From positions 1-24,241 of the forward strand of contig PFXB01000127.1 in the NCBI GenBank assembly GCA_002791435.1: DNA of 24,241 nt, read 5' to 3'. The position numbers and the translations under genes were made by a program. The notes under the pieces are model-generated. The model searched no databases. It had not been told where the DNA came from and saw only the letters and a program-made list of their open reading frames with translations. The DNA is from a candidate division WWE3 bacterium CG_4_9_14_3_um_filter_43_9 (GTDB lineage: Bacteria > Patescibacteriota > CPR3 > GCA-002780085). Below, one piece after another: positions 3,572-24,241 of the stretch (its first letter is position 1; the number at the start of each line of letters is the position of its first letter).

Positions 3572-3728
3572 CTGGCGGCAGGCAGAGTAGGTTTTCCTGT
3601 CTGCAGCAGACAGGAATTTCAAATTTTAAATTCCTAATTTGTTCACTCTTTGAGTGAAGAAATGTTTAATGTTTAAAAATTAGAAATTGATTAAAAATTG
3701 AAAATTAGAAATTGGAAATTAAAAAAGT

Positions 3729-20454: not shown

Positions 20455-20880
20455 TTACGGCGCTGCTTTTTTGGCTCTTTTGGCTCTTAGTTCAGTCAAT
20501 CCTTTTGCTTCCAGCTCGTCTGCTTTTCTGCGGGCTTCTAAAAATTCCTTATCTTTTGCAAGTCTTCTAAACCACTCACTCTCATAGAAATCTTTGAGGG
20601 TGGCTTTGGCGGATTGAAGATAAGCCACAATTTCCGGGTCACCAGCATGTTCAGGATAATAATCAAACTCAGGAACCGCTCCGTGATATTTTTGAGCCTG
20701 TGGACTTGCGGAGAGTAAATTAGATTCAACCGTAACATCTCGGTTAACATTGCCTTTATGGCAACAATCCTCGAAATCCAAAATCGCCTGGTCTGGGTAC
20801 CCTAATTCAATTCCATCCTCTAAAATTTCCATTATGGTTTCTGGTAAAATTAAACCGTCTTGTTGAGCTGCTTTAAGCAA
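20455..20880 (-). CDS. Hypothetical protein; true start uncertain (frame is open upstream)
   Basis: Protein-like ORF co-oriented with neighbours; the reading frame continues upstream of the track's TTG. Confidence 0.55.
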   Translation of the reverse strand: MLKAAQQDGLILPETIMEILEDGIELGYPDQAILDFEDCCHKGNVNRDVTVESNLLSASPQAQKYHGAVPEFDYYPEHAGDPEIVAYLQSAKATLKDFYESEWFRRLAKDKEFLEARRKADELEAKGLTELRAKRAKKAAP

Positions 20881-21246
20881 AGAACGCTCTTCTTGAGACC
20901 ATGCCTTAAATCCTCCAAATCCTTCTCGTGCATCAAATCGTTCAACACCTGGAATCTGAGTATGTTTTGTTTTCCATTCTATTCCTTTTATTTTGGTGAG
21001 GAGACTGATTTCGTAGTGAGATAAAAAGACAAAAGGAATAAATCTTCTATCCTTTTATCCCGTCATGAAACTGAGTTCTGAAACCAGTTCCGAGTATTGC
21101 GCTTCAACCTTAAGATTGGAGATATGACAAAATTGCCCAAAGCAATTTAAAATCAAAATTAGCTCGCTTGGGCGAGCAAAAGGAAACCTGCCTGCATAAG
21201 CAGGTACCATGAGCGTCAGGCTCAGGGAGATTCATATTTTGTACTT

Positions 21247-21699
21247 TCAATGTTGACCCGTAAGTTTGTCTCTAATGCTCCTCGCTAGATAGAATACTCT
21301 TTCCGCTCTTAGTAAAGATTCATTTTCCTGCTCCGTAACCGCTCCTGGGGGGAATGTCTCAATTATTCGCTCTCCGCCCATTTCATCCCTTGCCATCCAA
21401 AGTGCTATCTCTCCTTGCGATTCCAGATAGTCAGCCACCGCCAACCCTCCTTCGTCTATTGCCACTCTATTATCTAACCAATCTAATACGGTAGTATCTC
21501 TCTTCAAATATGCCTCAAACCTTTGCCGCAACAATCTTCCTTGCACAGAGATTGCATTGTCCCATTTACTAAGACCGGCGTTCCACGCTCCTATTGAAAG
21601 TTCAATCGTCCCTCTTTGTCTTTTCAAGATTCCTCTAGCTTCATGGACAATTTCGGAAAATTCTGCCTTTTCGGCAACAGATGAAAGTTGGTCGGGCAT
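21247..21699 (-). CDS. Hypothetical protein
   Basis: 150-aa ORF with GGAG SD; no family recognised. Confidence 0.65.
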   Translation of the reverse strand: MPDQLSSVAEKAEFSEIVHEARGILKRQRGTIELSIGAWNAGLSKWDNAISVQGRLLRQRFEAYLKRDTTVLDWLDNRVAIDEGGLAVADYLESQGEIALWMARDEMGGERIIETFPPGAVTEQENESLLRAERVFYLARSIRDKLTGQH

Positions 21700-21761: not shown

Positions 21762-21842
21762 TCAATTTTTCTTGCGTTCCGTATAATACTTTCTTCCCCT
21801 CAGCTCATCCGGTAACAAATTCTTATCTTTATCCGGGTACAT
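21762..21842 (-). pseudogene. Orphan C-terminal gene fragment, RarA/MgsA-like (copy 1)
   Basis: Encodes MYPDKDKNLLPDELRGRKYYTERKKN*; LPxEL.G.+YY resembles the RarA C-terminus. Confidence 0.6.
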
Positions 21843-21870
21843 TTCAGTTTGAACCTTCCCCTGTTCGGCT

Positions 21871-22425
21871 TCACCAATACCCTTTTCCGTAATGAAAGGT
21901 GTTTTTGCTCTGCATGACATAATCGTAAACTGCTTGCGAACAAAGCGGGATAAACATGGTTCCTGCATCGTATTTAATTTCACCTTTAATGTTTTCAAAA
22001 GAAATTTTCCTCATCATCGTCTTAAAACCTACTTTTTCGTAGAGTAGATAGGCTTCCTTTTTCAAGTCAACATTAAAGCAGGCTATATCGCACTTTTCCT
22101 TCTTCAGTAATTTTAATCCTTCTTTCAACATCTTCGTTGCAATACCTTTTCTTCTCATTGATTTTGCAACGCATACTCCACCCGTCCCGCCAAAAACTAT
22201 CTCCTTTTCGCCAAATTTAATTTTTCGTTTGAATAAACCGAGCATTCCGACAATTTTTCTGCCTTGATATGCAAACAGCCTCCCAAACTCTTGAGAGATA
22301 AAATCTTCTTCTATTGACTGCCTGTCTACATCACTAAAACACTCCTTTTGCAGCTTCAAGATAGAACTTTCTTGAAAGGGAGTAAGTTTCTTTTCTACGA
22401 TAAACTTAATTTCAATTTCATTCAT
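21871..22425 (-). CDS. GNAT-family N-acetyltransferase
   Basis: GGVCVAKSMRRKGIATKML (motif A, R-x-x-G-x-A), LYEKVGF. Confidence 0.92.
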   Translation of the reverse strand: MNEIEIKFIVEKKLTPFQESSILKLQKECFSDVDRQSIEEDFISQEFGRLFAYQGRKIVGMLGLFKRKIKFGEKEIVFGGTGGVCVAKSMRRKGIATKMLKEGLKLLKKEKCDIACFNVDLKKEAYLLYEKVGFKTMMRKISFENIKGEIKYDAGTMFIPLCSQAVYDYVMQSKNTFHYGKGYW

Positions 22426-22497
22426 GATGTTTCTTTTTTCTTATAATACTTCCTTCCTTTTAACTCCTCGGGCAACAGGTTGTTTTTTCGGGTAGAG
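22422..22497 (-). pseudogene. Orphan C-terminal gene fragment, RarA/MgsA-like (copy 2)
   Basis: Encodes LYPKK/(frameshift)/NLLPEELKGRKYYKKKETS*; its TGA overlaps the GNAT ATG as ATGA. Confidence 0.6.
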
Positions 22498-22692
22498 GCT
22501 CTATTCCCTCTGGACTTAATTTGAAACAGGCGACGGGCGTTGGCTGAAGTATAAATGATTCAGCATGATTCTATAAGTAAATTAATGGGCTATTAGTCTG
22601 GAAAGCTCGTTTAGTTTCAAAATGGTACTTTCTTACTAAAGAATACTGCGGGTTGAACGAAGTTAGAACCTGTTACTAACATTTTAAGAAAA

Positions 22693-24066
22693 CTAATTAC
22701 CGGATAATGCCTCTAGCAATTTTTTGGTAGCTCGATATTTGATATACTTACCCTCTCTTTCCCCAAGCACCAAGCCCACTTTCTCCAATTCTTTTATGTC
22801 CTTGGCGGCCGTTTGTCTGGAAATACTGCTCAGAATCGCATGAGAAGTAACGGTGGTATGCGTATTACTATCTGAAGCTAGATAATGCAGCAAATGTTTT
22901 TGTCTGTCTGTTAAATATAAATTTGTACTGATGATCTTGTCTATTTCCTTGTTTTCTGAAATTTTTCTAACGACGTATTCATTGAAATCATTGAGGGCTT
23001 GCATTATTTTCCTGATATGAAAATCAAAAAAATAAGTCGCGTCATATGCGTCTTGTTCAGAATAAATATATGCCATTGCATACTGAATAGGAGCTTTTTT
23101 GATAGTTAAAGAAATCGGTAGATACATAAACGTCCAATAATTCTTTCTAAGCAAATACCAGTAAAAAAGAGATCTTGCCAATCTGCCATTTCCATCTGTA
23201 AAGGGATGCAAGTAGCCAAACCAAAAATGTAAAAAAATGGCTTTAATGATTGGATGTAAAAATTTATTATCGTCCGCATCATTCGCATAATCAATTAGTT
23301 TCTCTATTTCTTCTTTGACAAACTTTTCTGCAGGCGGAATATGGGTTATATATTCTTGAGATCCAATTTGGCCCTGTACGACTATTCCGTCTGAATTTTT
23401 TCTTAATCTTCCCTGTTCTTCCCTCTTTATTGTTTTTTCAGTTAACATTCTATGTAACTCGAATAATAATTCTTTCGATAAAGGTTGATTTTTATAAACC
23501 TCATCAATTTTAAAAATCGTATTGTAATTATTTAAAATCATTTGTTCATCTTTATTCCTTGGCTCTCTTTTTTCAACAATCATCTTTTTGGCGGCTTGCC
23601 GTGTTGTATGTGCTCCTTCTAGTTGACTTGAGGCTATAGCTTCTTCTAAAATACCTCTTGAGATAAATTTCTGCTTATTTGAATCCGACAAAACGTCCAT
23701 CGAAGTAAATACTTGACCACCGGAACTAACATCAATTTTATGTAAAAATTCATCAACGTAAGACAATCTAATCCATTTAAAATAATCTCCTTTTTCACTT
23801 TTTATCGGTGTATCCCGCGAAACAATAGTCCTAAATTGCTTAATAAAAAACCAGGCTTCTTCAGAAGTAAAACCATGAGGAGTTTCTTTATGCTTTACTT
23901 CGTCCCAATATAAATATTGCGGCTCATTTCTTCTCTGTAAAAACTGAGCTAATTCTGCTATATTTTCAGTCTTGCCGAATATTTTCCCTCTATCTACTCT
24001 TTTTAAATCAGGCTTATCTAGCTTGAAATAGGGTAAAGTTAAATTTTTACTTGTCATATCTGTCAT
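22693..24066 (-). CDS. Fic-family protein with N-terminal inhibitory motif and C-terminal winged-helix domain
   Basis: HPFTDGNGRLAR catalytic motif; SSQLEG matches (S/T)xxxE(G/N); C-terminal ISRQTAAKDIKELEKVG HTH-like segment. Start may be 24057. Confidence 0.95.
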   Translation of the reverse strand: MTDMTSKNLTLPYFKLDKPDLKRVDRGKIFGKTENIAELAQFLQRRNEPQYLYWDEVKHKETPHGFTSEEAWFFIKQFRTIVSRDTPIKSEKGDYFKWIRLSYVDEFLHKIDVSSGGQVFTSMDVLSDSNKQKFISRGILEEAIASSQLEGAHTTRQAAKKMIVEKREPRNKDEQMILNNYNTIFKIDEVYKNQPLSKELLFELHRMLTEKTIKREEQGRLRKNSDGIVVQGQIGSQEYITHIPPAEKFVKEEIEKLIDYANDADDNKFLHPIIKAIFLHFWFGYLHPFTDGNGRLARSLFYWYLLRKNYWTFMYLPISLTIKKAPIQYAMAYIYSEQDAYDATYFFDFHIRKIMQALNDFNEYVVRKISENKEIDKIISTNLYLTDRQKHLLHYLASDSNTHTTVTSHAILSSISRQTAAKDIKELEKVGLVLGEREGKYIKYRATKKLLEALSGN

Positions 24067-24074
24067 ATTAGATT

Positions 24075-24140
24075 ATGTTAAATACATGTTAAGTATATGT
24101 TAATACTTAACATGTTAACATCCGGCTAAATACATGTCAA
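24075..24140 (-). promoter_or_regulatory. fic promoter overlapped by an ATGTTAA repeat/operator array
   Basis: - strand TTGACA (24140-24135), 17 bp, TAACAT (24117-24112); ATGTTAA at 24075, 24086, 24097 and 24112; 11-6-11 inverted repeat at 24086-24113. Confidence 0.7.
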
Positions 24141-24241
24141 TCCCATAATGCAAACAAGAGGAGGCGGAAAAATTCCAAGTTTCAACGGTGTTTTTAAGTC
24201 GAGCGCTGTGAATACCTGCAGGCTCTGCCGTGTGAGTTGAG

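Follow-up and report, generated by a model that had tools for sequence, protein, structure and literature searches.

Behind the DNA-repair gene rarA of a candidate-phyla-radiation (CPR) bacterium, an ultra-small and uncultivated inhabitant of groundwater whose 935-kb genome is assembled in 136 contigs, single genes alternate with short remnants of a rarA 3′ end. This array lies on the minus strand of contig C20 (GenBank PFXB01000127.1), of which positions 1 to 24241 were analysed and are here called the window. Sequence comparison identifies two of these remnants, tail 1 and tail 2, as copies of the last ~25 codons of rarA and assigns both to another rarA lineage than the end of the resident gene, an intact rarA whose own 3′ end is mosaic; the remnants are predicted to be displaced gene ends that are no longer translated. 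The locus appears to be a layered record holding three generations of one gene end, and we consider it probable that the two tails mark two successive insertions behind rarA, by a serial, homology-anchored and tail-regenerating process that proceeds without an integrase. CPR bacteria, or Patescibacteria, have tiny genomes and few classical mobile elements, and their gain of accessory and anti-phage genes is poorly understood. At this locus single genes have been slotted between tightly packed or overlapping genes, without an integrase and without breaking either neighbour.

Two copies of the rarA 3′ end downstream of the resident gene

Read on the minus strand, tail 1 spells MYPDKDKNLLPDELRGRKYYTERKKN from position 21842 to a stop codon at 21762, and profile homology begins one codon earlier, at 21845, so that the relic as a whole (EMYPDKDKNLLPDELRGRKYYTERKKN) occupies 21762-21845. 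It starts 26 nt after the stop codon of a gene encoding a GNAT acetyltransferase and ends 63 nt before a gene of 150 amino acids (aa). Tail 2 (22497-22422) reads LYPKK, passes through a frameshift in a run of A, and continues as NLLPEELKGRKYYKKKETS to a TGA (22424-22422) that overlaps the ATG of the GNAT gene (22425-22423) in the sequence ATGA. The original prediction, made from the letters of the window alone, had placed and read both tails exactly to the base, had pointed out this overlap of stop and start, and had assigned the two peptides to RarA by motif similarity.

The assignment to RarA was right. The frame that is open past the end of the window matches the Pfam family MgsA_C (PF12002; E = 5.4e-20 for the 84-aa live end). 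This model gave no match to the relic peptides (32 and 22 aa) at E ≤ 10, and a true 32-aa end reaches only E = 0.033; because it is underpowered at the lengths of the relics, a dedicated profile hidden Markov model (HMM) was built from 64 distinct RarA tails (the last 32 residues) of other organisms and used to search 43,742 six-frame fragments of the genome. It recovered the live rarA end at E = 1.6e-13, tail 1 at 8.3e-8 and tail 2 at 4.6e-6, the next best match having an E-value of 1.2. A position-specific scoring matrix (PSSM) gave 35.8 bits for tail 1 and 38.9 bits for tail 2, both of which are of type B, seen in tail 2 as YP-K-KNLLP. Furthermore, the six frames of the 935-kb genome contain the motif [DE]EL[KR]G[RK][KR]Y only three times, in each case on the minus strand of this contig and all within 2.6 kb. 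At the DNA level the three ends form a 42-nt repeat family with spacings of 1843 and 660 nt, in which tail 2 is 88% and tail 1 is 69% identical to the live tail. Direct repeats longer than 30 bp here flank inserts shorter than 20 kb, which hold a Fic-domain gene alone and the GNAT gene alone, without a mobility gene.

Beyond position 24241 lies the intact rarA that had been predicted there, upstream on the minus strand; in contiguous assemblies it encodes 412 aa. The order on the minus strand, which carries both tails and all of these genes, is rarA, a 207-bp spacer, the Fic gene, tail 2 with the GNAT gene, tail 1, and the 150-aa gene. On the scaffold of contig C20 a gap of 28 N (24242-24269), one of 94 such scaffold gaps in the genome, stands exactly behind the live rarA tail, and the rarA stop codon follows at 24274-24276, 33 nt past the end of the window; the N-terminal 240 residues of rarA are found at the end of contig C65 of the same genome. 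The position of this gap is the one point that would speak for chance similarity or a chimeric metagenome assembly as the source of the array, an explanation that we regard as extremely improbable. Against it stand the HMM E-values of both tails, and it is refuted by independent SPAdes, MEGAHIT and JGI assemblies of different samples from the same population, in which 10-30 contigs span the whole array from rarA to the 150-aa gene without a gap and fill the 28 missing bases. Because these assemblies show the same array at 98.4-99.9% identity, an assembly artefact is excluded.

Divergence of the tails from the resident rarA end

The live tail and tail 2 differ at 8 nt with 2 amino-acid changes (P = 0.003, the P values for synonymous bias being taken from a random-mutation simulation), the live tail and tail 1 at 10 nt with 2 changes (P = 3.5e-4), and tails 1 and 2 at 10 of 39 nt, again with 2 changes (P = 1e-4). 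Seven of the last 10 differences fall on third codon positions, which bears out the earlier remark that the two peptides are alike while their third positions differ. Mostly silent differences between the copies are what would be expected if each had belonged to a functional gene, in separate genomes, while they diverged. A short form, GYEMYPDKxKNLLP, is also common to tails 1 and 2 and is found as well in the rarA loci L147, L084, L090 and L036, whereas the resident rarA ends in a longer form, GYAKDYKWSKDYVGPTTDKSLLP, with KWSKDYVGP against the EMYPDK of the tails. Tail 1 matches the rarA end of L147 at 17 of 21 residues. Since the tails carry the signature of a different rarA lineage from that of the resident end, they are not in-place duplicates of it, and this lineage signature is independent of any bias that arises from recognising relics by their peptides.

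These comparisons bear directly on the explanation that the end of the host's own rarA was duplicated in place at each insertion, by staggered breaks and fill-in, and diverged afterwards, as in insertion with long target duplication (Nobusato et al. 2000 Gene 259:99, cited by Furuta, Abe & Kobayashi 2010 NAR 38:2428, PMC2853133). The direct repeats of more than 30 bp that flank inserts without mobility genes agree with the definition in PMC2853133, and a 121-bp repeat of the tail of an ABM-like gene, also in the window, has nearly identical copies, as such a process would leave them. A dead copy, however, should gain replacement changes freely, and only 20-30% or fewer of the differences seen here change the peptide. 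The different indel type of the tails could not be produced by point mutation, and the likeness of tail 1 to the L147 end goes part of the way to showing that the relics match rarA alleles of other lineages better than any ancestor of the resident allele. We judge duplication in place to be unlikely as the origin of the two tails.

The resident gene has a complex history of its own. Read past the gap, the live rarA ends in DKSLLPEELRGRKYYKKH followed by a stop codon, also read as GYAKDYKWSKDYVGPTTDKSLLPEELRGRKYYKKH and a stop codon. In a quick tree of RarA computed without the last 60 residues, a clade with short ends takes in the resident protein along with the RarA of L033 and L034, and the main group with long ends is placed elsewhere. 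Sliding-window comparison agrees with this placement for residues 241-360, which are closer to the short-end clade (e.g. 0.79 versus 0.53 identity), and finds the last ~50 residues closer to the other clade. Because affiliation switches along the protein, the live rarA end is itself taken to be recombinant, and the mosaic RarA of the resident, L033 and L034 suggests that the gene end was exchanged long ago. A patch of ~25 residues in these three proteins (GYAKDYKWSKDYVGP; residues ~360-412, L114:4800-4965) resembles another clade. In one assembly of the rarA region (L125; NCBI GCA_002780085.1, PEWD01000068.1:1-1002) rarA is called as two overlapping open reading frames (ORFs) of 180 and 186 aa, from either a genuine frameshift or an assembly error.

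Recurrence behind rarA in other CPR lineages

A survey of 112 rarA loci covered ~0.94 Mb in six frames; 80 of the loci came from metagenome contigs and 30 from species representatives, and the other two were L147 and a single locus from the population studied here. All secondary matches of a 13-residue PSSM above 20 bits lay on the rarA strand, 0.8-2.5 kb downstream of the gene, twice at the locus described here and otherwise at L109 and L147; in ~1.6 million control positions no match elsewhere exceeded 13.5 bits. A frameshift-tolerant half-motif scan (at least 15.5 bits) found five matches downstream of rarA against none in a six-fold larger control space, and added a second relic at L147 and a probable relic at L084. 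The same architecture, with other cargo, thus recurs downstream of rarA in three or more further CPR lineages, namely those of L147, L109 and, probably, L084. At L147 two relics follow rarA, the first behind a gene for a 250-aa membrane protein and the second behind a 140-aa gene; next comes a GNAT gene whose product is 68% identical to that of the window, and the two RarA proteins are only 57.6% identical. The foreign, synonymously diverged ends, together with a GNAT that is closer across lineages than RarA is, argue that the inserted DNA came from other lineages. At L109 two inserted genes follow rarA, and the relic behind them overlaps the start of an HD-domain gene exactly as rarA itself overlaps the HD gene in the uninterrupted relative L083; at L084 the order is rarA, a Bro-N/PDC-S13 gene, the probable relic, and an alcohol dehydrogenase gene. 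In these arrangements each relic abuts the next gene in the manner of a native stop/start junction, by ATGA in the window, by the overlap in L109, and by gaps of 10-24 nt in L147 and L084.

Gene content downstream of rarA is variable more generally. In the clade of L109 the distance from the rarA stop codon to the conserved HD/dtd genes lies between -10 nt and +3.4 kb, Fic genes frequently occupying the interval, and within the dtd/Lon clade a recognisable relic was found only at L109. Among pairs of rarA at least 85% identical, which are not independent of one another, the upstream flank could be aligned in 10 of 10 and the downstream flank (at least 600 nt) in 3 of 10. The closest relative of the resident rarA, L032 (95% protein identity), has a single tail, followed by an unrelated gene and a CBASS-type cyclase. 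When the rarA end was compared as DNA with the 5 kb downstream of it, self-similarity rose above all controls only at the locus described here and at L109, and L081 and L147 exceeded only the 99th percentile of the controls. The original prediction had called the rarA 3′ end an insertion hotspot, and the relics at L147, L109 and probably L084 support this, together with the variable downstream genes.

The placement of the relics distinguishes homology-anchored insertion from an explanation in which fragments consisting of a rarA end and its neighbour entered a tolerant spot by illegitimate recombination, the tail being a passive passenger with no role in targeting. Such passengers would agree with the finding that tail 2 and the GNAT gene behave as a unit in two lineages, and with the occurrence of GNAT and Fic homologues in many unrelated contexts. 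They would leave unexplained, however, why landing occurred repeatedly, exactly behind the rarA of the recipient and in the same orientation, twice here and again elsewhere; they would equally leave the mosaic end of the resident rarA unexplained, and rarA-tail relics away from rarA were not seen above the level noted for the control positions. We consider passive carriage of the tails improbable.

Tail duplication behind other genes

The Fic cassette of locus L170, 75% identical to the Fic of the window, lies between 57-nt direct repeats (2075-2131 and 3605-3661) that correspond, on the other strand, to the last 19 codons of a penicillin-binding-protein (PBP) gene. The copies differ at 13 nt and 1 residue (P = 5e-5), and because they were found by a DNA repeat search they are free of peptide-recognition bias. 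In addition, among 833 ORF ends scanned in the genome studied here, two tail duplications that do not involve paralogues exceeded the maximum of the controls. The first is the nearly identical 121-bp repeat of the ABM-like gene in the window. The second concerns a UvrD/PcrA-type helicase (contig C7:3130-6395, locus L174) that ends in SRFLDELPAELIEKWQV followed by a stop codon; a copy of this end 1.43 kb downstream extends over 74 nt, of which 68 are identical, with 1 residue changed and the differences clustered in 12 nt. The cargo between the helicase ends is a 350-aa gene combining Fic and a MerR-type helix-turn-helix (HTH) domain, the second Fic gene of the genome. As the same signature is found behind the PBP, helicase and ABM-like genes, the process is not specific to rarA, and in this respect the hotspot claim needed correction: hotspot behaviour appears to belong to the conserved ends of genes in these bacteria generally rather than to rarA alone.

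A proposed mechanism of insertion

We propose that the incoming DNA would consist of a rarA end and a cargo gene and would recombine with the resident rarA in the conserved last block of the gene (codons LLPEELKGRKYY). Recombination of this kind would rebuild an intact rarA, set the cargo directly behind it, and move the previous rarA end away from it, together with the downstream gene to which that end was attached. The live tail with the promoter and Fic gene would then be the newest layer and Fic the cargo of the latest insertion, followed by tail 2 and the GNAT gene, coupled by ATGA; tail 1 and the 150-aa gene would be the oldest layer, the latter being the oldest retained neighbour of rarA. 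A dedicated recombinase would be unneeded, with the conserved gene end serving as homology arm; the genome encodes RecA and a ComEC-like uptake protein. The event could take one of several alternative routes, such as integration of a circularised fragment by a single crossover, a double crossover in which the tail copy provides the short arm, or a one-sided, homology-facilitated event. In a genome so tightly packed that stop and start codons overlap, selection would favour those insertions that leave a second copy of the junction. From the arrangement of the locus we infer the order in which the events took place, which way DNA was transferred and the pathway of recombination. The end of tail 2, KYYKKKE, resembles the end of the L032 protein, KYYKKKE followed by a stop codon, as would fit a single crossover; the stretch is of low complexity and was not used as evidence.

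A different reading of the array is that the tails are scars of the attL/attR type, left by integrase-driven elements that each brought a replacement rarA end, accreted in tandem, and later lost their integrase genes to become remnants like those of cis-mobilizable elements (CIMEs). Arrays of partial target copies between cargo genes are the hallmark of serial site-specific integration, and copies derived from elements would also differ at synonymous sites. The genome does encode two tyrosine recombinases (PF00589), but these lie on other contigs (C15 and C93) and have the sizes expected for XerC/D. No integrase was found within the array in the gene tables of L114-L143, from rarA to the ZIP gene, and neither an integrase nor a fragment of one was found in or beside the arrays of L147, L109, L084 and L170. 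The units, moreover, are single genes of 0.6-1.8 kb. The 5′ boundaries of the relics vary from event to event (13, 7, 2 and ~0 codons before the LLP motif), so that the repeats share no fixed core, and repeat lengths range from about 40 to 121 nt across the cases. Finally, the signature is found at targets as unrelated as rarA and the PBP, helicase and ABM-like genes. We find an origin by site-specific integration hard to credit, about as much so as passive carriage, and return to homology-anchored insertion without an integrase.

Several observations weigh against that mechanism. The synonymous bias is inflated for most of the relics, which first came to notice through the similarity of their peptides, and relics are missing from most rarA loci whose downstream content varies. 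All 30 assemblies of the population carry the full array, and no site was found that is empty or at an intermediate stage; among the Logan contigs of four sequencing runs, which cannot reveal rare variants, none skipped the Fic or GNAT gene and none contained a circle junction. (A joint in these contigs that goes back 1801 nt was rejected as a junction, being the live tail aligned on tail 2.) The live tail and tail 2 share identical runs of only 13 and 17 nt, marginal for RecA-mediated exchange, and the natural competence of the organism is putative. Spacers of 134 and 195 nt of unexplained origin separate the tails from the conserved Fic cassette. Among 4 close GNAT homologues and 23 species-representative loci, rarA is nearby only at L147. 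This last result also bears on the earlier proposal that the GNAT gene arrived with the end of its native upstream neighbour: the proposal is plausible, since tail 2 is of a foreign type and the 68%-identical GNAT gene of L147 is likewise directly preceded by a rarA-tail relic, but it is not proven. A rarA-GNAT junction without interruption was seen in no genome.

Cargo genes and flanking sequences

The Fic gene (22693-24066, minus strand, as are all features of the array given here) encodes 457 aa and matches Pfam Fic (1.5e-18) and the PADLOC model SoFic (3.7e-42). It contains an HPFTDGNGR active-site motif (HPFTDGNGRLAR), which agrees with the pattern HxFx[DE]GNGRxxR, an SSQLEG inhibitory-helix motif and a C-terminal HTH, and is thus a SoFic-like gene with a predicted AMPylase or defence-type function. 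Upstream of it (24065-24140) lie a promoter-like site, identified by a promoter scan as TTGACA-17-TAACAT with a TG, and an array of ATGTTAACAT-type repeats. Similar repeats are kept upstream of the 73-79%-identical Fic genes of L170, L171 and L173, and homology among the four Fic loci is confined to L114:5099-6527. The promoter and repeat array are thus retained in unrelated contexts, which indicates that the mobile unit is a promoter/operator plus ORF of ~1.45 kb. Two flanks are not common to the other Fic loci: the non-coding stretch directly 3′ of the live rarA (24141-24241; L114:4960-5100 in gap-free sequence) and the 195-nt spacer from the Fic stop codon to tail 2 (22498-22692). None of the closest Fic homologues (73-79%) lies behind rarA, and the Fic loci L171 and L173 show no convincing flanking repeats.

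The GNAT gene (21871-22425, 184 aa) matches Acetyltransf_9 (4.2e-14) and Acetyltransf_1 (1.5e-9), both above cut-off, with a fold profile over the whole protein. Both termini are native to the family: the C-terminal HYGKGYW, considered as part of a longer rarA relic for its likeness to the GYGKGY of rarA, was rejected as such because FHYGxGYW is invariant in 15 GNAT homologues. The 184-aa family (L147-L169) is scattered in CPR (Levybacteria, Woesebacteria) and in records labelled Bathyarchaeia, Aenigmatarchaeota and Promethearchaeota, in some contexts after a small HTH gene and beside toxin-antitoxin genes. In run X3 one 251-nt contig (depth 2.6) matches both sides of window positions 22353-22483 with 163 other letters between them, so that the GNAT start and the tail 2 core are replaced; it may come from a relative with a different relic. 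The 150-aa gene (21247-21699) has no Pfam family and no homologue outside this population, and its native context is therefore untraceable. Two terminator-like hairpins follow it (21162-21205, from a pattern scan only), and the same scan found none on that strand between the Fic, GNAT and 150-aa genes. Going by pattern scans alone, these three genes may form one transcription unit that starts at the Fic promoter and ends at the hairpins after 21247.

In the stretch 3′ of the 150-aa gene (window ~20455-21210 and its equivalents in L114-L133) strain-level variation affects the same accessory stretch: some assemblies have a 141-aa ORF and others an ORF of 51 aa together with one of 125 or 108 aa. 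An ORF beside the PNPOx gene has 117 or 132 aa, depending on the assembly of the same population. Searches of the window for tRNA, tmRNA and Rfam families found none. A Y1 transposase gene of the IS200/IS605 insertion-sequence type lies ~1 kb upstream of rarA on the opposite strand (L114:2047-2712), and another directly behind a GNAT homologue (L145:4624-5301); no link between these transposase genes and the tail relics was found.

Comparison with known systems

Insertion with long target duplication, introduced above, was described for restriction-modification units whose near-identical repeats (for example 44/46, 417/423) match the insert-free allele, and was found mostly in naturally competent bacteria and with selfish or defence-type cargo (PMC2853133). 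The insertions behind rarA resemble it in that one or a few genes are inserted with no transposase or integrase between target repeats of more than 30 bp, which may overlap a gene 3′ end. As for insert-free genomes, the nearest relative, L032, has one tail but other cargo, and an uninterrupted relative, L083, exists for the analogous case of L109. The insertions behind rarA differ in that the cargo comprises Fic, GNAT and ORFan genes and in that two events are stacked at one gene of a CPR host. The copies, moreover, are 69-88% alike, biased towards synonymous differences and of different indel types, as ends from different lineages would be. If homology-anchored insertion is general, gene-tail relics would become a simple, computable marker of horizontal transfer events and of their order in uncultivated bacteria. 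The relics also point to a kind of gene mobility for which most of the documented cases are restriction-modification systems.

The prophage e14 in icd is an instance of element accretion at a gene 3′ end. Partial tRNAs left by serial site-specific integration mark the islands of tycheposons (Hackl et al., bioRxiv 10.1101/2020.12.28.424599). As in both of these systems, a replacement 3′ end would be supplied at rarA and older partial copies would be pushed inwards, where they separate cargo modules. Both systems, however, rely on a recombinase of the tyrosine or serine family and on an att core that is fixed, whereas the locus described here has single-gene units and variable boundaries and lacks a recombinase.

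Homology-facilitated illegitimate recombination (HFIR) reportedly occurs in natural transformation, as described by de Vries and Wackernagel in 2002 and summarised in PMC3240628. Here, as in HFIR, a conserved stretch on one side would anchor DNA that is foreign in the rest of its length, and no enzyme of a mobile element would take part. The usual outcome of HFIR is that recipient DNA is replaced or deleted; a retained duplicate of the anchor is atypical of it, and no microhomology junction has been demonstrated at the present locus.

As is proposed for rarA, a new 3′ end in the effector loci of rhs, contact-dependent inhibition (CDI) and type VI secretion systems (T6SS) recombines, with its partner gene, into a conserved gene and leaves the old end and partner orphaned downstream. 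The exchanged end of those arrays is a variable toxic domain, whereas the rarA end is conserved and functionally neutral and the cargo is a separate gene. Integron arrays differ from the present one in having IntI and attI, neither of which is present here, and the repeat behind rarA is a coding gene end (attC-type hairpins were not looked for). Both types of array consist of co-oriented, promoter-poor single genes with a short repeated site and a fixed anchor, possibly served by one upstream promoter. The cargo at the rarA hotspot repeatedly matches models of defence genes, with SoFic, a CBASS-type cyclase and PDC-S13 as predicted examples. A broader and more tentative suggestion, which we do not expect to hold but think worth stating, is that conserved ends of housekeeping genes serve in CPR bacteria as portable landing tags for an integrase-free, RecA-dependent exchange of cassettes. 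A cargo gene between two copies of such an end could enter whichever genome possesses the gene in question, could be lost again by excision between the copies, and would stack with others into small defence islands, with Fic/SoFic genes as the commonest riders. If so, such a system would be, in functional terms, an integron without an integrase.

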